From assembly GCA_046350615.1 (NCBI GenBank), contig JAXMAA010000001.1:268263-332262 (forward strand): a stretch of DNA of 64,000 bases. The letters are read 5' to 3'. This DNA comes from Candidatus Saccharimonadales bacterium. GTDB lineage: Bacteria > Patescibacteriota > Saccharimonadia > Saccharimonadales > UBA7683. The notes beneath the pieces are model-generated. The model saw nothing but the letters and a program-made list of their open reading frames with translations, was not told where the DNA came from and ran no database searches. Below are positions 2,686 to 62,859 of this stretch, piece by piece. Position numbers and translations under genes: made by a program. The stretch's first letter is position 1, and each line of letters opens with the position of its first letter.

Positions 2686-3498
2686 TCAATCATCTGCTAG
2701 AGGGTTGTCCTCAACTGTTTTCAAAGATGGTTTTCGGACAACACGATACCTCTCAATGCCTTCTCCGCCAAGGACTCCCCAATATAATCTTGAATTACCT
2801 CTAGCTGGGTTAATTAATCCACGTATTACAGGTGCAGTGTCTCCTGTGCTAGAAAGCCGCACGACTCTTTGCACTAAAAGGTTGAATGGACTAACACCGT
2901 ATGCATCTCGAAATTTTTCAATCTTTTCTCGACCGTCTGGAATCCCTTGTATATTGACTATCGAGAGTACCTTTGATTCGCGCTCACGATGCACATTCAA
3001 GCCCAATCGGGCAAGATACTGTCCATGATGATACAGCCTGGCCTGATACAAAGCTTCTGGACAGGGCGTTTCGAATTGCGGCCGATCATGTTGATGGGCA
3101 GCAATTCTGTCTGTAAGAACAAACTGTATATCTATGCCATCATCACACTTTTCGTCGCCGTACATTTCAACAAGATATTCCTGCGCATCTAAGTTGTCCA
3201 ACGCCCTATCAAGCTGCAAGCTGTTCTCAGGGTTAATAGTGGTTACGTGCCCACTACGGAAGCTTGTGTCAGCAGATAAGTACACAGCACCGAACGCATT
3301 CTCGAAGTTTATTGGGCGAAAACCAGTCCGCCTCTTGACTTCTTCATATCTCGCTAAAAATGGCCATCGTGGGTCATCATCTGTAGGCAAAAACCCATAC
3401 AAGCTAAAGGCTGTATCGAGAAGAACGGAAGGCTTCTGCATAAATGGCAGTTCACAGCCGTTTTTAGGTAACGGTAAGGTCCCCAGTACTCTAGACAT
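2686..3498 (-). CDS. Hypothetical protein (270 aa), directly upstream of and co-oriented with the antitoxin-like gene
   Basis: Long ORF with no recognisable motif. The ORF end at 2686 and the next start at 2540 leave a 145-nt AT-rich spacer. Confidence 0.5.
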   Translation of the reverse strand: MSRVLGTLPLPKNGCELPFMQKPSVLLDTAFSLYGFLPTDDDPRWPFLARYEEVKRRTGFRPINFENAFGAVYLSADTSFRSGHVTTINPENSLQLDRALDNLDAQEYLVEMYGDEKCDDGIDIQFVLTDRIAAHQHDRPQFETPCPEALYQARLYHHGQYLARLGLNVHRERESKVLSIVNIQGIPDGREKIEKFRDAYGVSPFNLLVQRVVRLSSTGDTAPVIRGLINPARGNSRLYWGVLGGEGIERYRVVRKPSLKTVEDNPLADD

Positions 3499-3525
3499 TA
3501 ATGCATTATAACATACTTTATGCAG

Positions 3526-4374
3526 TTATGTCAATATTTGGGCATCTTCAATCTGGTGATTGCCGATTCTGGTGCGGCGGAGTTCGGTGCAGTAGGCGCC
3601 GGTTTTGAGGGTTTTGCCGATATCTTCTACCAAGGAACGGATGTAGGTGCCGCTGCTGACGTCGCAGATGCATTTGAGGTAGGGGTATTCGTAGCTTACT
3701 AGTTGTAATCTGCTGATTGTCACCTTTCGGGATGGAATCTCGAAACTCTTGCCCTCTCGGGCCAGTTTATAGGCCCGTTTGCCGTTAATTTTGATCGCAG
3801 AATAGGCCGGTGGGGTTTGGGTAATCTCTCCCGTGAACTGACGAAGTGCTTGTTGCACTTCTTCGGGAGTTGGATTATTGATAAGTGATTTTTGAAGGGA
3901 AGATAACTCGCGTTGCTCAGGACTTTCTACTGGATTCCCGATCAGGTCGGGAATGACAGAGTCGTCAGATCCTCCGTTTTCCATATTCCATATTCCGTAT
4001 TCCAAAATCTCACCTTCCGGATCGCCCGTGCTACTCACCTCACCGAGCTTTGCGGTGAACTCGTAGGTTTTATCTAGTTTTAGGTATGATGAGGCGTCTT
4101 TGCAGGCATCGCCAACTAAGATAATAAGCAGTCCGGTAGCAAATGGGTCAAGCGTGCCGGCATGACCAACTTTAATTTTTTTGGGTTTTTGGGTGGAAGG
4201 TAACTCGCTTCGCTCAGGTTCATTAAACTGGATTCCCGTCTTCACGGGAATGACGGGTCTATTTGCTATTTGCTGGTATCTGTTATCTGTGTTCCGAAGC
4301 AAGCTTCGGATGCGGGCAACCACATCAAAACTCGTCCATCCGGCTGGTTTATCAATCAGTATTACATCTTTCAT
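3526..4374 (-). CDS. truB: tRNA pseudouridine(55) synthase TruB, carrying two in-frame hairpin-repeat insertions
   Basis: ILIDKPAGWTSFDVV and KVGHAGTLDPFATGLLIILVGDA are the TruB motifs. Extra segments ...RPVIPVKTGIQF... and ...DSVIPDLIGNPVES... are encoded by repeat copies at 4230-4254 and 3932-3957. Confidence 0.9.
   Translation of the reverse strand: MKDVILIDKPAGWTSFDVVARIRSLLRNTDNRYQQIANRPVIPVKTGIQFNEPERSELPSTQKPKKIKVGHAGTLDPFATGLLIILVGDACKDASSYLKLDKTYEFTAKLGEVSSTGDPEGEILEYGIWNMENGGSDDSVIPDLIGNPVESPEQRELSSLQKSLINNPTPEEVQQALRQFTGEITQTPPAYSAIKINGKRAYKLAREGKSFEIPSRKVTISRLQLVSYEYPYLKCICDVSSGTYIRSLVEDIGKTLKTGAYCTELRRTRIGNHQIEDAQILT
3932..3957. repeat. Hairpin mini-repeat, in frame within truB
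   Basis: ggattcccgatcaggtcgggaatgac: stem attcccga/tcgggaat, loop tcagg, then GAC. On the coding strand it is translated as VIPDLIGNP. Confidence 0.75.
4230..4254. repeat. Hairpin mini-repeat, in frame within truB
   Basis: ggattcccgtcttcacgggaatgac: stem attcccgt/acgggaat. It is preceded by the shared module cgcttcgctcagg and translated as VIPVKTGIQ. Confidence 0.75.
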
Positions 4375-4390
4375 TATCTGTTAGTATACT
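4362..4390 (+). promoter_or_regulatory. Sigma-70-type promoter for the PIG-L gene
   Basis: TTACAT (4362-4367), 17-nt spacer, TATACT (4385-4390), ATG at 4398. It lies inside the 5' end of the divergent truB coding sequence. Confidence 0.5.
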
Positions 4391-4397
4391 AAACATC

Positions 4398-5108
4398 ATG
4401 AAGAAGTTATTATTTGGTATTTTTGCCCACCCCGATGATGAAGCATTCGGGCCATCGGCCTCCTTATATCAAGCTGCTCAGAGCGGTACAGATGTACATC
4501 TTATTTTGTTAACAGATGGCGAAAACGGCAATAATCCCGATGAAGTGAGCGGCCTCGCTCAAGTGCGGCTCAAAGAGTGGGAACAAAGCGGTGCGCTTAT
4601 TGGCGTGAAGAGCCAACACGCTTTGCATTACCCTGACGGTGGTATCAATAACAATTTGTATTTAGAAATTGCAGAAAAAATCTTCGCGGTTATACGTAAA
4701 GTTTTGAAAACATACAGCAACGAGGTGTCGGTAGATTTCATGACCTACGAACAGGGTGGCATTACCGGACATCTTGACCATATTGCCGCCAGCTACATCA
4801 CAACTTTCGTTTACCTGAAACTACACGAGGAACAGAGCACGCACCACCATATTCAAACACTGAAATACTATTGCCTACCCCAGTGTCTTGCACCCGAAAC
4901 AAACACCAGCTGGCTCTACATGACATGCGGCAAGGCAGATGCACACTGCGATGAGATTTTTGATTACATCGAACTAAAAGAGATTAAGCTGAAAATCATG
5001 AAAGCTCATCGCTCGCAGCGTGATGATATGCAAGCCATAGTGCGCCAGCAGACAGCAACCAACAATCCATGTCGCTATAAAGATCACTTTTGTTATTTTA
5101 AATCTTAG
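4398..5108 (+). CDS. PIG-L/LmbE family N-acetylglucosaminyl deacetylase
   Basis: MKKLLFGIFAHPDDEAFGPSA contains the HPDDE zinc-binding motif of LmbE/PIG-L. The ORF-track start at 4263 runs through truB and is unlikely; ATG 4398 is preferred. Confidence 0.8.
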   Translation: MKKLLFGIFAHPDDEAFGPSASLYQAAQSGTDVHLILLTDGENGNNPDEVSGLAQVRLKEWEQSGALIGVKSQHALHYPDGGINNNLYLEIAEKIFAVIRKVLKTYSNEVSVDFMTYEQGGITGHLDHIAASYITTFVYLKLHEEQSTHHHIQTLKYYCLPQCLAPETNTSWLYMTCGKADAHCDEIFDYIELKEIKLKIMKAHRSQRDDMQAIVRQQTATNNPCRYKDHFCYFKS

Positions 5109-5197
5109 TTTGTAGTTGATGGTTTGTAGTTTGTGGTTGGCAGTTGGCAGCTCTTAGGTCGGCTGCGCGAGGATGAAAGCAAATGGGAAGTTTTTTC

Positions 5198-5257
5198 TAA
5201 GCTCTAAGTTCTAAGAACTAAGATCCATCTCTCTATTTGCTGCTATCTGTTATCTAC
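5198..5257. repeat. Family-2 dispersed intergenic repeat
   Basis: ctaagctctaagttctaagaactaagatccatctctctatttgctgctatctgttatctacc. The core ctatttgctgNtatctgttatct recurs at 4259-4290, 7750-7784, 33455-33482, 34271-34298 and, as a variant, 42985-43015. Confidence 0.6.
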
Positions 5258-7480
5258 CTAAACTGGTGGCAGCGGAGGCAACCCCGAACCATTCGGATTA
5301 TTGAGTGGTGATTGCCCTTGAAGCTCACGGTTACGATCTACTGCCTGCTCGTAATCAGCAACTTTCGCATCAATTTTTGCCTGGCGATCAACATCGGCCT
5401 GATTCTGCTGCGCAGCAAGATCATCGCCAGCTTGTGTCCACGTGTTTTGAGATTGTGGCATATTCTGCATAAACTCTGGGTTTGTTTGCGGCTGGAACCC
5501 GGTAGCAATATCCGTTATTGGCTGACTGCCCGGAAGGGGTGGCAGTGGCGGAAGACCTTGTTGATCTGCGCTAGCGCCGGGCAGTGGTGGCAATGGCGGC
5601 AACCCTGCCGTCTGATCTTGCGGTGGCAGCGGTGGCGTTATGGGTGGTGCAAACGAGGCTGCGGTGGCTGGCGCTGGACCAAGTGGCGGCGGGCTGAAAT
5701 CGCCCACTGGTGCCGGGGGTAGCATTGGTTCTGGCTGAGATGGTAAAGCTACGTCTGTAATGGTTGGTGCTGGAAAGGCTTCGGGAACAACCGGCTCAGG
5801 ACTCGGCGGTGTAATTGGTGCTACTACCGGAGGTGTTTCTGGGCTAGCCTCGAGAGGAGCCACCTCTGGAAGTGGCGTACTACCGATAGATTCAAGCCGT
5901 TTGTGAGGTGGATCAACAGCCGCATCTTCAACCGCCTTACGTGCCGCCTCAATCGTCTCTTCCGAACCAATGACACCATCATTAGTATGTTCAAGTGTTG
6001 GCGGGGTATTAGATTCAGATTCTAGAGCAGTCGTGCTTGAAGCCGCCTCATCACCTGCTTGTGTTGCATTCAGCGTTCCCCCAAATTGCGGTGGCGTCAG
6101 AGCGTCTCGCGCTGGAGGCGGCGTAATGCTTGGCAAACCATCAGGGGCGGCAGCTTCGGCTACAGGAGGTGCTACTGGCACTGGAATCTCCACGGGTGCC
6201 GGAGGATTTGCAGCTGCCGTATCTTTTACAGTTTCCTCACGCTTTGCTGTGGGTTTTTGAGGCTGGGTTGCTGGCGATTCGGAATTTTTCTGCTTATCGA
6301 GCGCTAGTTTTAAGCTTACATCTGTTTGAGCCGGCTTATTATCTTGGTCTTGCTGCTTAACCTTAGCTGGCTGTTGTTGGTCTTTTGAACTCTGATTTTG
6401 TTGCCCGCCATTATTACCCTGTGCGTTTTTACCAGGTTGGTTATTTTTGGCACCCTTTCTGCTATCCCGGCCATCTTTTTTCGAATCCTTTTGTTCGTTG
6501 TGTTCGAGTACCATCTCGCCACTGTCATCTTGCGGCTGGTCTTTTGGTTTATTCCGAATTGATTCGCTCAACACACCCTCTTGGCGAAGATTACTGGCTA
6601 TCAGCTGCTGATTTGCTCCAGCTGCCATCAACTGGGCTGCGAGCGTCATCACTTTTGGACTGGTTTTTTCGTTCGAGAATCGGCTAGTTTCGGCAACAAT
6701 ACCAGTTAAGAACGCTGTGGCCGATTGAGCATCGAGTAATTGCGCATCAAGTTGGTCTACTAAACTCAGTAGCATCTCGGCAACCGAGCTTGCCTCGCCA
6801 TCATTCCAGTTGATACTGCCAAGATTGCTCTTCTGAACCCCTGCATTGATAGAAACAACCGTTGCATCGTGCAAAATGCGACCATGCGCAGTAATTGCCC
6901 TATCGAGCTCATCCCGGTTGAGCGCGCCGAGCGCCAAGACAACATCAACATTAAAATCACCTTGGCTAAATTGGAGGTCCTTTTGGGTGATAACTGTCTT
7001 ATATGGGGTGATGAAGATTTTCACAACATCATCTTCCACCTTGTAGCGCAGCTTATCTGCTTTTTCTCTATCAAGCGCAATTATGAAATCACGCAGGCTA
7101 TCCACAGTATTCTCAAAGGTTTTTTCTGGATCCAGAAACTCCATTGCAGCTGGAATCTTGCCACTAAATACCGCCGTAGCGTGTTTGCCGATCTTTCCGA
7201 GTATGATAGTCAGCCCGAGTGCTGAAGCAAGCTCATCAACAGATGGGTTACCGCCCACCGTAACAAGCATGTTTTTTCCGTTATTAATTGCTGTGACTAT
7301 TTGTGAAACCAGACCTTCAACCGGTTCGGCCGATGCGGGTTGCGGCTGTTCCTCTGGTTGCGATTGCTGTGGCACCTCGGGTACTAGCGGCTCAGCCGGC
7401 AATGCCGGAAGATTTGGTAGTGGCGGTGCTTGCGGCTGCGTACTATCGGGAACTTGTGAAACAGGCGTTTGTGGATCCAT
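5258..7480 (-). CDS. Degenerate DHH-family (NrnA-like) domain protein with a long proline-rich C-terminal region
   Basis: N-terminal domain LVTVGGNPSVDELASALGLTIIL...VDVVLALGALNRDELD...DGEASSVAEMLLSLV...FLTGIVAETSRF is collinear with NrnA/DHH motifs (HxxPDGDAxGS, DxxN, DHH, DTSASSxSEM, GIxGDTGRF). The catalytic residues are replaced (NPSVDE, no DHH). The C-terminal ~400 aa are Pro/Gln/Ala-rich with LPPLPPLPG repeats. The preferred start is ATG 7480 (MDPQTPV); the upstream 27 codons are read-through of the intergenic region. Confidence 0.6.
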   Translation of the reverse strand: MDPQTPVSQVPDSTQPQAPPLPNLPALPAEPLVPEVPQQSQPEEQPQPASAEPVEGLVSQIVTAINNGKNMLVTVGGNPSVDELASALGLTIILGKIGKHATAVFSGKIPAAMEFLDPEKTFENTVDSLRDFIIALDREKADKLRYKVEDDVVKIFITPYKTVITQKDLQFSQGDFNVDVVLALGALNRDELDRAITAHGRILHDATVVSINAGVQKSNLGSINWNDGEASSVAEMLLSLVDQLDAQLLDAQSATAFLTGIVAETSRFSNEKTSPKVMTLAAQLMAAGANQQLIASNLRQEGVLSESIRNKPKDQPQDDSGEMVLEHNEQKDSKKDGRDSRKGAKNNQPGKNAQGNNGGQQNQSSKDQQQPAKVKQQDQDNKPAQTDVSLKLALDKQKNSESPATQPQKPTAKREETVKDTAAANPPAPVEIPVPVAPPVAEAAAPDGLPSITPPPARDALTPPQFGGTLNATQAGDEAASSTTALESESNTPPTLEHTNDGVIGSEETIEAARKAVEDAAVDPPHKRLESIGSTPLPEVAPLEASPETPPVVAPITPPSPEPVVPEAFPAPTITDVALPSQPEPMLPPAPVGDFSPPPLGPAPATAASFAPPITPPLPPQDQTAGLPPLPPLPGASADQQGLPPLPPLPGSQPITDIATGFQPQTNPEFMQNMPQSQNTWTQAGDDLAAQQNQADVDRQAKIDAKVADYEQAVDRNRELQGQSPLNNPNGSGLPPLPPV

Positions 7481-7579
7481 TTTCTTACCTATTTTTATTT
7501 TAGCTTTTATACATAAACAGTATCGGATTTTAACAGTGATGTCAAGAGAGAAATACTTCAATCACGAATTACCGACCTT

Positions 7580-7605
7580 GTCATCCTGAGCGAAGCCGAA
7601 GGATC
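7580..7605. repeat. Hairpin mini-repeat (AGGATGAC subtype, reverse orientation)
   Basis: gtcatcctgagcgaagccgaaggatc is near-identical to 63152-63177 and to the reverse complement of 42924-42949. Confidence 0.7.
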
Positions 7606-7787
7606 GAGCAATGAATAACGGTTTAGATCAGATCTTCCCTCCTTTGCTAAAACTCTGGTGAACAGGTCGATAGGCTCAAGATGGCATACTGCTGATGGCT
7701 TCATTCGTGGTTGGGGTAAAAACAGATAACAGAAAGCGCATGTGCCACCTCTATTTGCTACCATCTATTATCTCTTATCTGACTCAC

Positions 7788-11554: not shown

Positions 11555-14233
11555 TTATCTGGTTTCAGAAAATGATACACGATTTTGAGAGAACGTAGCG
11601 ATAATCTTTTGGCCGTCTTTTACTTTGCCCTCGATAATTTCAAGTGCGAGCGGGTCTAACAGATCAGTTTGGATGAGACGCTTGAGTGGACGAGCGCCGT
11701 AATTTGGGTCGTAGCCAACTTCGGCCAGGTGTTTTTTGACGCTTTCATCAATGGTGAGCGTAATATTTTTACTCGTTTTGAGGTGTTTGATTACTCGCTC
11801 AAGCTGAACGCCTACAATGTTGTTCATTAATGCTTCACTGAGCCGCTCGAATACCACAATGTCATCAATACGATTAAGAAATTCTGGACGGAAGTGCGCG
11901 CGCAAACGATCGTTGAGGGCAATCTCAAGTGCTTCGTCAGTCAGCCCAATAGGGCTGTCATCCTCGGACTTGATCCGAGGATCCAGTTTATTTTGTATGC
12001 CCTTGGCATTCTTTGTTTGACTGGATTCCAAATCAAGTTTGGAATGACGGGAAGGAAAGTTGGTGTTCAAAATTAAATCGGAGCCAAGATTGCTGGTCAT
12101 GATAATCACCGTGTTGGTGAAGTTGACGGTTCTCCCTTGCCCATCAGTCAAACGCCCATCATCTAAAATCTGCAGTAGTGCATTAAAGACATCTGGATGT
12201 GCTTTTTCAACCTCATCAAACAACACTACAGCATATGGGCGGCGGCGCACAGCCTCGGTCAGCTGTCCGCCCTGCTCGTAACCAACGTAGCCCGGAGGCG
12301 AGCCAATCAGGCGAGCCACGGCGTGCTGCTCCATGTATTCGCTCATGTCAATGCGCACCATGGCATCTTCATCATCAAATAACTGTTCGGCTAGAGCTTT
12401 GGCAGTTTCGGTTTTACCCACACCGGTTGGACCCAAGAATAAGAACGAGCCGATTGGCCGACCCTCATCGGAAATACCGGCGCGTGAACGGCGAATGGCA
12501 TTGGCCACTGCGGTGATAGCCCGATCTTGCCCAATCACCCGCTTTTCCAACTCCTTTTCAAGATGCACCAGCTTCTCAGATTCGCTCTCTAATAAGCGCG
12601 AAACCGGAATGCCGGTCCAGCGTGCTACCACTCTAGCAATATCTTCGCTCGTCACCTCCTCTTTCAAAAGGCGCTTGTCGCCATCAAGCTTTGCAAGCTC
12701 ACTCTTAGCTTTGGCAATGGCTTTCTCGGCTTCCGGAATTTTGCCGTACTGTAATTCACCAGCTTTTGCGAGATCGTTCTCGCGCTGGGCAGCCTCAAGC
12801 TCCGATTTGTACTGATCGAGATTCTCACTAGCTTGGTTTAAATTATCAATCAGTTCTTTTTCACGCAGCCACTGCGTTTCCAGCCCGCTCGAAGATTCCT
12901 TTAAATCTGCGATCTGCTGCTCAAGCTCTTTTTTGCGCGCCTTAGCACTCTCGGACTTATCTTTTTTGAGCGTGGTAAGCTCAATCTCGAGCTGCATTTG
13001 CTTGCGTTTTGCTCTATCAAGCTCGGTTGGCATGCTTTCTATCTCAATTTTGAGTGCCGAGGTGGCTTCATCTATTAAATCCACCGCTTTGTCGGGCAAG
13101 AATCTATCAGCAATGTAGCGGTCACTCAGCCGCGCCGCCGCAATTAACGCATCGTCAGTAATCTTCACGCCGTGGTGAATTTCGTACTTTTCTTGCAAAC
13201 CCCTGAGAATGGCGATTGAATCTTCTACGCTCGGCTCATTCACATACACCGGCTGAAAACGCCGCTCTAAGGCTGCGTCTTTTTCAACGTACTGCCGGTA
13301 TTCATCGAGCGTTGTTGCTCCAATTAGGTGCATTTTGCCGCGCGCGAGTGAAGGCTTAATCATATTACCGGCGTCAACCGAACCCTCTGATTTTCCCGCG
13401 CCAACAATGGTGTGCAGCTCATCAACAAACAAAATAATTTCGCCATCAGATTTTTCTACCTCGTCAATCACCGCCTTAAAACGCTCTTCAAATTCGCCTC
13501 GATATTTTGCGCCAGCCAGAAGACTGCCGATACTCAGCTCAATCAGCTTCTTATTTTTTAGACTACTCGGCACGTCGCCATTCACAATGCGCTGCGCCAA
13601 ACCTTCAGCAATAGCTGTTTTACCCACGCCTGGCTCGCCAATCAGCACCGGATTATTTTTAGTACGGCGAGAAAGTACCTGCATCACGCGCCGAATTTCT
13701 TCATCACGGCCAATAACCGGATCTAACTTGCCACTCCGAGCCAGCTCGGTGAAATCCTGCCCATATTTTTCCAGCACATTTTGCTTATTTTCAGGAGATT
13801 GATCCATAACCTTCCGCCCTCCTCGCACACTTTCAATATTATTTTTAAGCTCATTGTAATCTACGTTAATCAACTTTTGTTCCGCCGCCGCCAAAAGCAC
13901 ATGCTCAGTACTCACGTGCGTGTCGCCGAGATTCTTCGCCTCTTTTTCGGCCCGCTCAATCAGCTTAATGAATTCTCTGTTTGGTCTGATATCAACACTC
14001 GAGACCTCCGCACTACTCTTAGCTACAGCATCGAGACCGTTATTCACAATCCGCACCACCTCATCGCGCACATTCGCCCGATCAATCAAAATCGTAAACG
14101 TCGTATCCGCTTGCTCAAGTAGTGCCTTTAGTAAGTGCCACTGAGAAAACTCCAGATTTTGATGCTCACGAGCCAACTCCACCGCTCGCTGCAGCGCCTC
14201 AATCATCTTATGAGTCAATGAATCCGTATTCAT
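11555..14233 (-). CDS. clpB: ATP-dependent chaperone ClpB, with two in-frame hairpin-repeat insertions near the C-terminus
   Basis: Two AAA+ modules ([10 protein letters not shown] and GPTGVGKTE), a coiled-coil middle domain and a Clp N-domain. The extra segment ...[42 protein letters not shown]... lies between MTSNLGS and [10 protein letters not shown]. Confidence 0.95.
11957..11983. repeat. Hairpin mini-repeat, in frame within clpB
   Basis: gtcatcctcggacttgatccgaggatc (reverse orientation): stem atcctcgga/tccgaggat, loop TCAAG. Translated as DPRIKSEDD. Confidence 0.75.
12023..12048. repeat. Hairpin mini-repeat, in frame within clpB
   Basis: ggattccaaatcaagtttggaatgac: stem attccaaa/tttggaat, loop TCAAG. 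Translated as HSKLDLESS. Confidence 0.75.
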
Positions 14234-14251
14234 AACCAGAATTATACAAAA

Positions 14252-14278
14252 TTGGCACTCTCAATACAAGAGTGCTAA
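14252..14278. promoter_or_regulatory. CIRCE-like HrcA operator upstream of clpB
   Basis: TTGGCACTC-N9-GAGTGCTAA versus the consensus TTAGCACTC-N9-GAGTGCTAA. It lies 19 nt upstream of the clpB start. Confidence 0.6.
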
Positions 14279-14283
14279 TTTAC

Positions 14284-14874
14284 TTAATCTGGCAGCCAGA
14301 GTTCTATATTGCCGCTACTGATGCCTGGTTTCGGAACAGCACCATATACCGTCAGCGCATCCTCAAACGTCACGGCAGCCACATCAGCGGCGTCCACCAT
14401 GAGCTGCTCGGCTCTCACAAGTTCCGGTAACCTGAACTTTTGCGCGAGTCCATGACGGCGAATGTATGATTCTAGATAACTAGAGCCTATCCCTATTGGT
14501 GTTTCCCAGAAATCATCCTTGCCAATAAACTGTTTTGCATCACGAAACCCGTCCTCACCTAAATGATGCTGGATAATATCTAAGCTTCCTTTGTTTGCTA
14601 TGCCATCGTGTGCCCAATCTAATGCTCGCACAGAGACCCAAAGCATCCGCATAGAACTTGCCACTTTCGCAGCAGCCTGTGCACGCTGAAGAACGGCATT
14701 CCCATCCTCAAAAGTACGCATACGTCGCCAGTAAGTAGCGGCTTGACCAGCAAACGATTCACTCCTACTGATCGGCAATATTCTAAGTTTGTCACTCTGG
14801 TGATCGCCAAACTTCGAAACTACATGCTGATATTCAGCATCCAGCCATTCGGTAACGATTTTCTGAGTGTTCAT
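14284..14874 (-). CDS. Hypothetical protein (196 aa)
   Basis: ORF only. Confidence 0.4.
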   Translation of the reverse strand: MNTQKIVTEWLDAEYQHVVSKFGDHQSDKLRILPISRSESFAGQAATYWRRMRTFEDGNAVLQRAQAAAKVASSMRMLWVSVRALDWAHDGIANKGSLDIIQHHLGEDGFRDAKQFIGKDDFWETPIGIGSSYLESYIRRHGLAQKFRLPELVRAEQLMVDAADVAAVTFEDALTVYGAVPKPGISSGNIELWLPD

Positions 14875-18606: not shown

Positions 18607-19101
18607 TCACGCATAGATACCACTTAGCTCATTGCGAACACGCATCAATATAAGGCCAAGATGATTCTCGCCGTCAGTACTACCTATTGGGTCTACACCC
18701 CAGAACCGATCACCCCAATCATTACCTTCAACTAGCTCTTCGACACCGGTCTGAGCAAGTAATAATGCGATGTCGTGATTGGCTGCGAATTTCCGCTTCA
18801 CCGCCTCGTACATTAAATCAAGCTTTGCGTTTGGCCAGTCTGGGAGCTGCTCTTCACCGGAATCTACGAGCTTTCGTGCGAAACTTTTAACTGCCTTTCC
18901 ATTCGCATACCAAGAGGCATCGCTCGGCTCGGCACGAATCTCAGCGACTTCACGTTGGACATCAGGATCAACAAATCGGCCCGACATATACACATGCTCA
19001 GAAGTAGGAACTTGAATACCGCAAAGTGCCAAGATTGGTACCTTCAGTGGGTACATATTACTGAGGTAAAAATGCTCACCCCGAAAACGTTCGATTGTCA
19101 T
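18607..19101 (-). CDS. NADAR (YbiA-like) domain protein
   Basis: N-terminal FRGEHFYLSNMYP matches the DUF1768/NADAR signature (FxGxYxFLSNF). Confidence 0.65.
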   Translation of the reverse strand: MTIERFRGEHFYLSNMYPLKVPILALCGIQVPTSEHVYMSGRFVDPDVQREVAEIRAEPSDASWYANGKAVKSFARKLVDSGEEQLPDWPNAKLDLMYEAVKRKFAANHDIALLLAQTGVEELVEGNDWGDRFWGVDPIGSTDGENHLGLILMRVRNELSGIYA

Positions 19102-21899
19102 AAATCACCCCAAGTTTTGCCGGATTTTACATCTACTTTTAATTTTACAGGGAGTTTGGTGTAAATATTTTCCATGATTTCAATTAGAAGCTTCTCTACT
19201 TCTTCAGTTTGTGATTCTTTGCACTCAACAATGATTGAATCGTGAATCTGCAGCAACTGACGCGGAGCGTCATCCTCAGCTTGACTGGGGATCTCGTTAG
19301 TATTGGCACGAGATCCCCGATCAAGCCGGGAATGACGGCTACCCATACCCATCAGTTTTTTATCTACTTCGATCATTGCTAGCTTCATTAAGTCCGCCTC
19401 TGTACCCTGAATTGGCATGTTCATAGCTGCCCGTTCTGCACTTGAGCGAACAATAAAATTACTCGATGTAATATCTGGCATCGGTCGCCGCCTACCAAAT
19501 AACGTCTCGACATAGCCTTTACTCTTGGCTGTTTCAATCAATTCAGCCGTGTAGTCAAACAGGGGTTTTCGTAGTTCTTTGTACCGAGTGAGAAACTCTT
19601 TGGCTTCATTTAAATTCATGCCGGTAGCCACACTTAAGCCGTGAGTGCTCATACCGTATAAAATGCCGAAGTTAATTACCTTGGCGTGTCGGCGTTGATC
19701 TGGAGTGACCTCGTGCGGCTTGATACCGTATACCTGCGCAGCTGTGGCGGTGTGAATATCGGCATCTTGATTGAACAGCTCAATAAGTTCTGTATCACCA
19801 GCCATAGCCGCCGCAAGTCGCAGTTCAAATTGGCTGTAATCGGCACTAACCAGCACATTGCCCTCCCCAGCTCTGAAGGCCTTGCGAATTTTTTTACCGA
19901 TTTCAGTGCGCACCGGGATGTTTTGTAGGTTTGGCTCGGCAGATGAAAGCCGACCGGTTTGTGCAATAGTCAGACGAAAATCGGTATGCAAACGTGAATG
20001 TTGATCAATCAGCTTCGGCAAGGCATCAACATAGGTAGACTTCAGCTTGGTATATTCACGGTACTGTGTAATCAAATTAATGATGGGATGCGACCAACGC
20101 AGTTTATCAAGCTCATTGGCAGCCGTAGAATAGCCAGTCTTGCCCTTCTTCACGCCTTGAGTTGGTAGCTTCAGATCTTCAAACAATACTTTCGCAAGTT
20201 GCGAAGGCGAGCTGATGTTAAATTCTTGGTTAGCATGGCCATACACCTCTTGTTCAATGTCAGAGATGATACCCTCAAACTCTTCACTCATTTTGGCCAA
20301 GTATGGAGCATCGAGCTCAATGCCCGCCACCTCCATACGAGCCAAAACTGAAATAATTGGCCACTCAACTTCTTCAGCCAATTTAATCAGACCGGTCAGT
20401 TCGCTCATTTGTTCACCTTGTTGATGAGCGAGGTGCGAAATAACCGCACTCAACGTGGCAGCCTTGGCGATTAACTCCTGCGAATCGATATTATCAAGTT
20501 CGGTTTCCACCCCAAGATCTCGTGCCGCCATCTCAGTTAAACTAGTCTCTCGCTGCAAGCTGTTGATTAAAAAACCGCCAATGAGCGTATCGTGTGCAAT
20601 CTGCGGTAGCACGCTGTCATCCTGAACTTGTTTCAGGATCCGTTTTGAGTCGTTGGTAGATTCTGAAACAAGTTCAGGATGACGTGCCAAGAGCAGCATT
20701 TTGAACACGTGTTTAAGGTCGTGGCCGATAACACTTTTTGGCTTGAAGTGACTGAGAACAGCCGGTAAATCATTGCCGAGCTGCTCGGCATCAAGCACGA
20801 AAACCGCCTTCTCATGCGCCAGAATAAACAGTTGTGGCTGGCTGCCAAGTGCATCGCTTGAGCGACCATACAACACAACCTCTGCTTTACCGTTCAGAGC
20901 TGCTAACTTCTCGGCATCCGAGACTGACGTAATATGTTGCACACTGCCAAGCTTCAGATCAGAAAAACCGGCCGCCGCCTGCTCCTCCTCGCCATCATCA
21001 TGATTCTGCATATGTTCTGGCAAGTTACGCAGCAAGCTTCTAAATTCAAATTTTTTAAGAAGAGTCTTGAGCTTGGCAGTATCGAGATCGTTCACGTCCA
21101 TATCCGGGAGATCAAGCTCAACTGGTGCGTCATCATAGAGCTCGGCCACCTCTTTGCTCATATATGCCGAGGCACGGCCGGCTTCCAGTTTTTTTGCAAG
21201 CGTTGGTTTAATGTGCTCGAGATTTTCGTAAACATGGGCAAGCGTGCCGTATTCTCGTAAAAGTTCGGCGGCAGTCTTCTCGCCAACCCCTGGTACACCA
21301 GGAATATTATCAGAACTATCGCCTTTCAAGCTTTTTAAATCCAGAAATTGCTCTTTTTTAATACCGTACTTGTCCTCGAACGCTGCGATATCAAACCGCT
21401 CGATGTTACTAAAACCCTTCTTGAGAGCGTAAACTTGCGTGTGCTCGCCAACACTCTGCAGGGCATCAAGATCTGAGGTAATAAGCATTGTTTCAAGCCC
21501 GGCTTTATCAGCCTTTAGGGCAAGGGTGTGCATGATATCATCAGCCTCGTAATCGTCAAACTCATAGAGCGGCCAGCTGAAAGCATCAAGCAGCTCATAG
21601 AGCAACGGAATTTGTTTATAAAAATCCTCTGGTGCTGCCTTTCGCCCAGCTTTGTACTCTGGGTGTACCGCCAAACGTCGGCGAATATTCGTTTTTGGTT
21701 TGTCCCACGCCACACAGACGTAATCTGGCTTAAGCTTCTTCAGAAGCTCTAAACTCATAGCAGCAAAGCCATACACTCCACCCGTAGGTGTACCATCTGC
21801 CATGCTTAAATTACCCATGGCATAGTAGCCACGATAAAAAACCGACTTCCCATCAATAATCGCCAGCTTCTTACGTACTTCCGTCATCATCATTGCCAA
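19098..21899 (-). CDS. polA: DNA polymerase I, with an in-frame ~30-aa insertion made of two hairpin repeats before motif C
   Basis: 5'-3' exonuclease N-terminus, 3'-5' exonuclease-like domain, polymerase motifs A (DYSQFELR) and B (RRHAKVINFGILYG), and LLQIHDSIIVE (motif C). The segment MGMGSRHSRLDRGSRANTNEIPSQAEDDAPRQ is encoded by repeat copies 19269-19336. Confidence 0.95.
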   Translation of the reverse strand: MAMMMTEVRKKLAIIDGKSVFYRGYYAMGNLSMADGTPTGGVYGFAAMSLELLKKLKPDYVCVAWDKPKTNIRRRLAVHPEYKAGRKAAPEDFYKQIPLLYELLDAFSWPLYEFDDYEADDIMHTLALKADKAGLETMLITSDLDALQSVGEHTQVYALKKGFSNIERFDIAAFEDKYGIKKEQFLDLKSLKGDSSDNIPGVPGVGEKTAAELLREYGTLAHVYENLEHIKPTLAKKLEAGRASAYMSKEVAELYDDAPVELDLPDMDVNDLDTAKLKTLLKKFEFRSLLRNLPEHMQNHDDGEEEQAAAGFSDLKLGSVQHITSVSDAEKLAALNGKAEVVLYGRSSDALGSQPQLFILAHEKAVFVLDAEQLGNDLPAVLSHFKPKSVIGHDLKHVFKMLLLARHPELVSESTNDSKRILKQVQDDSVLPQIAHDTLIGGFLINSLQRETSLTEMAARDLGVETELDNIDSQELIAKAATLSAVISHLAHQQGEQMSELTGLIKLAEEVEWPIISVLARMEVAGIELDAPYLAKMSEEFEGIISDIEQEVYGHANQEFNISSPSQLAKVLFEDLKLPTQGVKKGKTGYSTAANELDKLRWSHPIINLITQYREYTKLKSTYVDALPKLIDQHSRLHTDFRLTIAQTGRLSSAEPNLQNIPVRTEIGKKIRKAFRAGEGNVLVSADYSQFELRLAAAMAGDTELIELFNQDADIHTATAAQVYGIKPHEVTPDQRRHAKVINFGILYGMSTHGLSVATGMNLNEAKEFLTRYKELRKPLFDYTAELIETAKSKGYVETLFGRRRPMPDITSSNFIVRSSAERAAMNMPIQGTEADLMKLAMIEVDKKLMGMGSRHSRLDRGSRANTNEIPSQAEDDAPRQLLQIHDSIIVECKESQTEEVEKLLIEIMENIYTKLPVKLKVDVKSGKTWGDL
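19269..19336. repeat. Two adjacent hairpin mini-repeats in frame within polA
   Basis: gtcatcctcagcttgactggggatc (19269-19293, reverse orientation, TCAAG loop on the other strand) and gagatccccgatcaagccgggaatgac (19310-19336), followed by the conserved GG. Confidence 0.7.
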
Positions 21900-57965: not shown

Positions 57966-58034
57966 CCTTCCGTCACTCCTGCGCAGGTGGGAATGCAGGG
58001 GGAGGATATTCAGGAACAGGCCCAGAATGACGGC

Positions 58035-62769: not shown

Positions 62770-62825
62770 ATACTTACTCCTTTTCTTGATATCATTTCTG
62801 CAAAAGCAGAAATCATTATGTAACT

Positions 62826-62851
62826 GGATCCCGTATCAGGTACGGGATGAC
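62826..62851. repeat. Hairpin mini-repeat in the groES-groEL spacer
   Basis: ggatcccgtatcaggtacgggatgac: stem atcccgta/tacgggat, loop TCAGG, then GAC. Confidence 0.7.
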
Positions 62852-62859
62852 GAGTCCCG

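Follow-up and report, generated by a model that had tools for sequence, protein, structure and literature searches.

The truB gene of a Candidatus Saccharimonadales bacterium (contig JAXMAA010000001.1 of assembly GCA_046350615.1; the 64-kb stretch analysed here, positions 268,263 to 332,262, is called the window) contains two inserted blocks, each with a short DNA hairpin inside it. These inserts are very probably copies of a short, non-autonomous mosaic repeat that persist in-frame within tolerant loops of the encoded protein. Judged by sequence, the hairpins at their core are members of the Neisseria Transformation Sequence (NTS)/Ssn-related motif (SRM) family, which elsewhere are targets of Ssn nucleases. 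An earlier note on this DNA, made from the nucleotide letters alone, had described two in-frame 27-nt hairpin-repeat insertions in truB resembling Rickettsia palindromic elements (RPEs). We resolved the gene and its inserts into the following features.

3526-4374, minus strand: truB, 282 aa, an intact open reading frame (ORF) with the catalytic GTLD motif, from the ORF list
4186-4289, minus strand: insert 1, made up of heptamer array, NTS/SRM hairpin and tail, translated ...DNRYQQIANRPVIPVKTGIQFNEPERSELPSTQKP, delimited by ortholog comparison and the predicted local distance difference test (pLDDT)
4258-4289, minus strand: heptamer array of insert 1, CAGATAA CAGATAC CAGCAAA TAGCAAA TAGA, with a 7-nt period at 4259-4274 by Tandem Repeats Finder (TRF)
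4228-4255, minus strand: hairpin copy A (NTS/SRM), CGTC-ATTCCCGT-GAAG-ACGGGAAT-CCAG, matching the published SRM pattern
4186-4227, minus strand: tail of insert 1, TTTAATGAAC CTGAGCGAAGCGAGTTA CCTTCCACCCAAAAACC, 82% identical to the copy-B tail
3889-4004, minus strand: insert 2, made up of heptamer array, spacer, NTS-like hairpin and tail, translated EYGIWNMENGGSDDSVIPDLIGNPVESPEQRELSSLQKS, delimited by ortholog comparison and pLDDT
3979-4004, minus strand: heptamer array of insert 2, GAATAYG three times and GAAAACG, with period 7 and 3.7 copies by TRF
3930-3958, minus strand: hairpin copy B (NTS-like), TGTC-ATTCCCGA-CCTGA-TCGGGAAT-CCAG, with a perfect 8-bp stem
3889-3929, minus strand: tail of insert 2, TAGAAAGT CCTGAGCAACGCGAGTTA TCTTCCCTTCAAAAATC, from alignment to the insert-1 tail and the tails of orthologs

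The two inserts are copies of one repeat. Only two matches to the palindrome ATTCCC-N6-12-GGGAAT exist in the 64 kb, both inside truB (3934-3954 and 4232-4251), and none of 100 shuffled sequences contained one. The repeat unit measures ~70 nt (3889-3957 versus 4186-4254), and its copies are 77% identical and match each other better than anything else in the window. Read along the coding strand, both have the form GTC-ATTCCCGN-loop-NCGGGAAT-CCAG and continue as ...C(C/T)TGAGC.A.GCGAGTTA...CAAAAA; the tail common to both was not found elsewhere in the 64 kb. Both hairpins are in sense orientation. Copies A and B have loops of 4 and 5 nt and spacers of 9 and 8 nt, respectively, and folding as single-stranded DNA gives their 8-bp stems energies of -7.6 kcal/mol (z = -3.6) and -9.0 kcal/mol (z = -5.2). 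A tandem array of 7-nt units stands 5' of each hairpin: (GAATAYG)n at 3979-4004 and CAGATAA/CAGCAAA/TAGCAAA at 4258-4289. The inserted units are 75-111-nt mosaic elements in which a heptamer array is followed by the hairpin and then by a conserved tail. The 27-nt length given in the earlier note fits the hairpin cores (27 nt in copy A, 28 nt in copy B) and is too short for the insertions, as the repeated unit is ~70 nt and the blocks cover 3889-4004 and 4186-4289.

TruB accommodates this extra sequence. The product is 100% identical to NCBI protein MFO0971000.1 of a metagenome-assembled genome (MAG; Candidatus Saccharimonadales, 351-kb contig), matches the NCBIfam model TIGR00431 at 199 bits (cut-off 151) and yields an AlphaFold model that resembles E. 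coli TruB 1K8W (Foldseek E = 7e-20). The catalytic Asp motif, GHAGTLD, is invariant across the TruB orthologs compared. That the enzyme is essential is an assumption of the earlier note. With the ORF intact and scoring as TIGR00431, the hairpin repeats are in-frame and stop-free, as had been claimed. Solved TruBs align in three blocks (residues 4-26, 68-125 and 168-280) and leave ~38 and ~36 residues extra, at the two sites that the earlier note had named. Spacer lengths in 117 Saccharimonadales orthologs agree: site 1 spans 49 aa in the window TruB versus a baseline of 24 (net excess 25 aa), and site 2 spans 64 aa versus 27 (net excess 37 aa). The pLDDT falls below 50 solely at residues 39-57 and 131-164, both within inserts, and the core is modelled confidently. 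This very low model confidence in both inserts is consistent with disordered loops.

The family to which we assign the hairpins was described by Chenal et al. (Nat Commun 2025, PMC11893778). The NTS, CGTCATTCCCGCGMAVGCGGGAATCYRG, encompasses dRS3 (ATTCCC-N8-GGGAAT), and a degenerate motif defined alongside it, the SRM, is HGTCWYN(0-2)YYVSBRHN(0-5)WNVSBRGN(0-2)RNCYNB (PMC11893778). SsnA (cd10448), a small GIY-YIG protein, binds and cleaves NTS/SRM hairpins as single-stranded DNA only and in one orientation, and Ssn does not bind RNA; the 3 nt upstream of the palindrome are critical for cleavage, and the cytosine after it is critical for binding (PMC11893778). The same study reports that the ssn gene typically lies between flanking motif copies, that NTS copies in Neisseria cluster around key genes and modulate transformation, and that genomes with more than 300 SRMs include Rickettsia (PMC11893778). 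In the window, the published SRM pattern has five matches versus 0.35 expected, copy A included. Both truB copies keep the GTC before and the C after the palindrome (GTC...AAT-C), and the only positions without variation in 21 aligned hairpins are the GTC preceding the palindrome, the palindrome's A/T ends and the C following it. Inner stem positions covary, with double changes at five of eight pairs and a score of 0.54 versus 0.19 when shuffled. This 21-sequence alignment (A5) replaced a 26-sequence one (A4) whose 9-bp stems shifted register.

Related contigs place the same hairpin beside a candidate ssn gene. Locus L088 holds a 95-aa PF01541 GIY-YIG gene (14064-14351) with inverted hairpins, CGTCATTCCCGCG(C/A)AGGCGGGAATCCAG, on both sides. 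These flanking hairpins are identical to the Neisseria NTS consensus, and records of Neisseria gonorrhoeae, Coxiella, Azospirillum, Legionella and sphingomonads contain sequences 97-100% identical to the L088 hairpin. By its layout, the segment at 14018-14381 of L088 appears to be an NTS-ssn-NTS unit, and a similar putative unit at 2107-2500 of L084 likewise encodes a 95-aa PF01541 protein. Thousands of homologs of the 95-aa protein (62-85% identity) occur across phyla, among them Deltaproteobacteria, KSB1, Doudnabacteria and others, a distribution that suggests horizontal spread of the predicted unit. A PDB sequence search with this protein gave only weak UPF0213 matches, and NCBIfam held no specific model for it.

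The hairpin is also dispersed outside truB. A strict search, which required GTCAT and a stem of 7 bp or more, found nine copies in the window versus 0.26 expected and 20 further copies in ten close-relative loci (L081-L090). It found none in L001-L008, eight distant Saccharibacteria loci among the matches listed. Seven of the 11 hairpin copies in the window lie inside genes, and with respect to the host genes both orientations are represented. Outside truB, the window contains the following.

11957-12048, minus strand: clpB doublet, two inverted hairpins, in-frame in the clpB ORF (11555-14233)
19269-19336, minus strand: polA doublet in the palm region (SRHSRLDRGSRANTNEIPSQAEDD), in-frame in the polA ORF (19098-21899)
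20616-20683, minus strand: second polA doublet (ARHPELVSESTNDSKRILKQVQDDS), in-frame in the same polA ORF (19098-21899)
2123-2186, no strand assigned: doublet of inverted hairpins in the intergenic stretch that separates convergent ORFs
62824-62852, minus strand: intergenic single hairpin, CGTC-ATCCCGTA-CCTGA-TACGGGAT-CCAG, from the strict search and the SRM pattern scan
57972-57994: intergenic hairpin copy, from the strict search
5095-5270, minus strand: intergenic mosaic ~1 kb from truB, with insert-1-related heptamer arrays and a decayed hairpin

The genes that carry inserts, truB (twice), clpB and polA (twice), are intact ORFs that score as their own families (NCBIfam). The hairpin is open in five of six frames when its loop is 4 nt and usually in four of six when it is of the CTTGA-loop type, and the intragenic copies use open frames (VIP..GIQ, (R)HS..ES and ..DD). 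The clpB doublet adds ~37 aa; it is common to the clpB of L088 and absent from that of L081 and L090. Its presence in L088 and absence from L081 imply gain and loss or recombination. L081 is the locus with the TruB closest to the window's, yet its clpB has no doublet. Both polA doublets are absent from the L094 ortholog, and one of them sits between the conserved motifs ...MNMPIQGTEADLMK... and ...QIHDS.... When the clpB junctions were compared with empty-site orthologs, no target-site duplication was seen, and the pairing of terminal inverted repeats with duplication expected of a miniature inverted-repeat transposable element was not found there. The dispersed hairpin, the empty sites in truB, clpB and polA orthologs and the low-pLDDT inserts together uphold the RPE-like intragenic insertion that the earlier note had proposed.

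The two truB inserts differ in age: insert 2 is old and widely shared, and only insert 1 is lineage-specific. Among the orthologs compared, P0002 (locus L081) and P0003 (L082) are the closest to the window TruB and have the same synteny; P0033 lies on L084 (10001-10882) and P0030 on L085 (4657-5508). A profile scan of genome contigs with the TruB alignment returned, among the matches listed, eight distant Saccharibacteria loci (hairpin-free) and Bacteroidota, and a protein scan of metagenome contigs returned one relevant truB locus at 60% identity. Insert 1 is absent at the DNA level from the truB of L081 and L082, which keep the canonical site-1 linker, and it is therefore lineage-specific. 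Over 32 nt its heptamers share 97% identity with intergenic L087:7492-7523, and over 23 nt they share 96% with window positions 5233-5255. In the L087 intergenic region, the heptamers are followed by an NTS hairpin and then by the insert-1 tail (TGAGCGTAAGCGAGTCA), all three modules within 7492-7640. Because these modules recur together in intergenic DNA, the unit copied in insert 1 is a composite element and not a bare hairpin. Its tail motif also stands 3' of the hairpin in the site-2 inserts of orthologs. Since the heptamers differ, simple duplication of insert 2 is improbable as the source of insert 1. A perfect palindrome, CCGAAGC-AA-GCTTCGG (4294-4309, translated RSLLR), lies immediately 5' of insert 1, and in all orthologs with site-1 expansions this palindrome segment is changed (R[SN]xLR instead of RGKIR).

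An orthologous insert 2 is present in L081, L082, L085-L090 and L094 and absent from ~70 shorter orthologs. Its distribution is patchy, requiring 21 parsimony steps versus 35 with random labels (neighbour-joining (NJ) tree, 222 core columns). The earlier note had raised the alternative of relatives that have the extra residues and lack the hairpin signature; those that share insert 2 share the nucleotide signature of the hairpin as well. Among the site-2 stems of ten loci, eight of eight Watson-Crick pairs are formed in the window, L082, L085, L087 and L094, seven of eight in L081, L088 and L089, and six of eight in L090, and the L086 stem is decayed with unequal arms. Seven pairwise comparisons were made among the five fully paired stems, and all differences are fully compensatory pairs; the conditional probabilities per comparison are 0.022 (one pair changed), 1.7e-3 and down to 3e-5. 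Between the window and L082, changes in the 5' arm are synonymous and changes in the 3' arm replace amino acids (G->R, N->D). In L094, hairpin and tail are read in another frame (RHPELVSGS...NLSNANQ versus VIPDLIGNP...PEQREL), with the frame of the heptamer module kept. Stem change by compensation only, together with a frame switch in one ortholog, indicates conservation in DNA and not in the peptide. Such DNA-level conservation is compatible with selection on structure, with re-insertion and with homogenisation by other copies.

Module combinations at site 2 vary among orthologs and include a nested loop insert (L085), a doublet (L095) and hairpin-free modules. The L085 truB (P0030) has a 63-nt insertion nested in the loop of the site-2 hairpin, VIPA[ACPPKPFSIAKATAGRWRRG]KAGIQ, with the outer stem intact. 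In the L084 truB (P0033), both sites are filled by another repeat, TTAGCAA-type heptamers plus GGCAAATCGCCAATTGC, without the NTS hairpin. This two-site pattern parallels that of the window truB with another element, and P0038 has the P0033 repeat at site 1 only.

Composite elements are found near truB as well as within it. The mosaic at 5095-5270 comprises several different heptanucleotide arrays and an NTS hairpin and lies between a Pro-rich 767-aa ORF and a PIG-L gene; its counterparts are L087:7470-7660, with the hairpin intact, and L081:9095-9280, the orthologous intergenic region. A decayed version of the insert-1-like composite is present in the orthologous intergenic region of both the window and L081. 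Heptamer arrays always precede the hairpin on its 5' side, the one on which Ssn cleaves. The truB gene starts at 4374 on the minus strand and PIG-L probably at the ATG at 4399 on the plus strand; the two starts diverge, 24 nt apart, and the one site resembling a PIG-L promoter (4361-4390) coincides in part with the first truB codons. The 767-aa ORF (5258-7561, minus strand) has long Pro/Gln-rich low-complexity stretches and is syntenically conserved beside truB; no Pfam family matched its orthologs, which are 684-730 aa long in L081-L094.

We propose the following course of events. The hairpins would have dispersed through the Saccharimonadales genome as singlets, as inverted doublets and in combinations with heptamer arrays and the tail. 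They may have spread by Ssn-dependent nicking with copying or repair, by recombination between copies or by gene conversion, with the Ssn presumably encoded by this genome itself. Because the genome is gene-dense, many copies would fall inside genes, and those persisting there would be in-frame and stop-free, in tolerant loops. In-frame persistence would come easily because the hairpin is open in four to five of six reading frames. The ribosome would then read through the inserts, adding ~25-37 residues and keeping the catalytic core of TruB, and the inserts are probably neutral for the enzyme. The evidence supports the RPE-like reading of an in-frame palindromic repeat in a tolerant loop, 'selfish DNA in a gene' in a new lineage.

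Several points weigh against this proposal. Insert 1 is not a clean insertion: it is absent from P0002 and P0003, in keeping with the insertion that the earlier note had claimed, and the ancestral linker (TEYAARGQKPTKKQL) has been replaced rather than interrupted. Comparison with empty-site orthologs showed no target-site duplication at truB site 1, and insert 1 is seen in one MAG assembly only. Copy B is a near-match to the SRM pattern, one position off (A where B is required). The 21 aligned hairpins were chosen for having a stem, so that their 100% pairing arises by construction, and the patchy distribution of insert 2 is drawn from an NJ tree of a short protein. A tblastn search found no ssn homolog in the 64-kb window, and no ssn was traced to this MAG among the listed homologs of the 95-aa GIY-YIG protein. 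For SRMs in general, the mechanism of mobility is undemonstrated, and an origin that is insertion sequence (IS)-like or by domestication is a hypothesis only (PMC11893778).

The conserved site-2 stems could also be read as a sign of function. In that case the intragenic hairpins would not be junk; selection would keep them as DNA-level Ssn recognition tags that control the fate of transforming or single-stranded DNA of core genes in a naturally competent episymbiont. They would sit in genes because intergenic space is scarce, the reading frame would carry a second, structural code, and the insert peptide would be a by-product. Orthologous site-2 stems stay perfect through one to five compensatory pair changes in inserts that are otherwise 68-86% identical, and between the window and L082 this costs amino-acid replacements in the 3' arm (G->R, N->D) and is synonymous in the 5' arm. 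The peptide frame of insert 2 is not conserved (L094), and NTS copies in Neisseria lie near key genes and modulate transformation (PMC11893778). However, the site-2 hairpin has decayed in several orthologs (six of eight pairs in L090, unequal arms in L086, seven of eight pairs in L088 and L089), and many orthologs are entirely without insert 2. Gene conversion or hot-spot re-insertion would give an equal compensatory pattern without functional selection, and the tblastn search of the window found no Ssn; we consider a tag function unlikely. We attach a similarly low probability to an origin of insert 1 from insert 2 by duplication or gene conversion within truB, which would require one insertion from outside only. 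The truB copies are mutual best matches (77% over 70 nt) with a tail unique to them in 64 kb, and the ortholog P0033 likewise carries one and the same repeat, a different one, at both sites. Yet the heptamers of insert 1 (CAGATAA.../AGCAAAT) are unlike those of insert 2 (GAATATG) and 97% identical to the L087 intergenic copy, which also has hairpin and tail. The copies also differ in loop (4 versus 5 nt) and spacer (9 versus 8 nt), and 77% is low for a recent intragenic copy, given the absence of insert 1 from orthologs 83% identical in protein. Intragenic duplication of insert 2 into site 1 is the less likely origin.

The remaining explanations have far less in their favour. An RNA-level role, in which the hairpins act as a terminator or attenuator, an RNase site or a known structured RNA in the truB mRNA, draws on stems that would form in RNA too and on the sense orientation of both truB copies. 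No terminator-like site was found in 3400-4600 and no Rfam family matched in 3000-5500 (E<=1), copies occur in both orientations relative to host genes, and the characterised partner protein does not bind RNA (PMC11893778); such a role is unlikely, and we give it very little weight. The inverted doublets in clpB, polA and intergenic DNA resemble REPINs, and L081 carries a Y1_Tnp fragment, as might be expected were the hairpins repetitive extragenic palindromic (REP) sequences or REPINs mobilised by a REP-associated tyrosine transposase (RAYT, a Y1 tyrosine transposase) and unrelated to Ssn. That ORF is an 84-aa fragment with no adjacent family hairpin, neither the window nor the other loci contain a homolog of it, and the hairpins flank GIY-YIG genes and have the exact NTS consensus. 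GTAG, which we take to be the canonical REP head, is not present in the hairpins, a further count against REP/RAYT. We rejected this highly improbable origin, as no hairpin-flanked Y1 transposase was found in the window or the compared loci. It is scarcely conceivable that the extra residues reflect ordinary lineage-specific loop or low-complexity growth, with the hairpin a coincidence of codon choice. Sites 1 and 2 do vary in length, and some expansions are hairpin-free (P0007, P0014, P0033 and P0053). However, the 24-28-nt structured motif, bordered by conserved GTC...C, is found again in further genes and reading frames, on either strand and between genes; in relatives it lies on both sides of a GIY-YIG gene, and a repeat in other phyla is identical to it. 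Ordinary loop growth was excluded on the strength of this dispersed, oriented and cross-phylum motif.

Understood as a mosaic repeat with an NTS/SRM-type core, the truB inserts give the hairpin repeat a molecular identity, that of a target of the Ssn single-strand nucleases, a family described in 2025. They extend the NTS/SRM family to Saccharimonadales (candidate phyla radiation (CPR)/Patescibacteria), where it is embedded in-frame in housekeeping genes. The loci provide natural material for studying both the role of Ssn and SRM outside Neisseria and the in-frame palindromic repeats of reduced genomes, and an orthologous hairpin that keeps its stem via compensatory changes and is read in different frames is relevant to both questions. 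They also call for caution in annotation: VIPxxxGIQ, RHSxLDxxS and LDPxxKxxDD loops in CPR proteins stem from the translation of repeats and are no functional motifs. Were the hairpins DNA-level Ssn tags after all, this could explain the in-frame palindromes of Rickettsia and link RPEs to GIY-YIG Ssn nucleases.

Among known systems, RPEs are the nearest by behaviour. A study by Ogata et al. in 2000 is reportedly the source for them. RPEs are in-frame palindromic repeats in unrelated housekeeping genes of a reduced genome (PMC10969869). By analogy, the truB, clpB and polA repeats appear RPE-like in being in-frame in housekeeping genes and compatible with the fold of the host protein. Unlike the window elements, RPEs are ~100-150 bp long and defined in Rickettsia. 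The listing of Rickettsia among SRM-rich genomes (PMC11893778) suggests that RPEs may contain SRM hairpins. Our literature search returned nothing relevant linking RPEs with GIY-YIG proteins or on RPE-like peptide or DNA strings, and no description of in-frame palindromic repeats in Saccharibacteria.

Like NTS/SRM, the window hairpins consist of GTC, a palindrome with AT-rich ends, an 8-bp stem, a 4-5-nt loop and C(C/T)AG. The positions invariant in the window family are those found experimentally to be needed for binding and cleavage (PMC11893778), and related contigs (L088 and L084) share what appears to be the NTS-ssn-NTS gene architecture. Unlike the published cases, the host belongs to a Patescibacteria/CPR lineage; the main text of PMC11893778 mentions neither CPR nor Patescibacteria, does not use the word 'intragenic' and makes no statement of copies within genes. 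Many Saccharimonadales copies, by contrast, lie within coding sequences, in-frame and translated. Their stems are far more variable and include a second, CTTGA-loop subtype, and the copies are joined to heptamer arrays and a tail.

REP sequences, bacterial interspersed mosaic elements (BIMEs), REPINs and Neisseria intergenic mosaic elements (NIMEs) resemble the window elements in being short hairpins that occur as singlets or inverted doublets and form mosaics with other modules, and in having a single small nuclease-type gene flanked by repeats. Unlike in REP/RAYT systems, the associated gene in the Saccharimonadales relatives is GIY-YIG and not a Y1 transposase, and whereas REPs, BIMEs and NIMEs are extragenic or intergenic by definition, the window elements lie inside genes. 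The repeat in truB is a known kind of phenomenon that now extends to a further lineage, and it does not amount to a system of a new kind.

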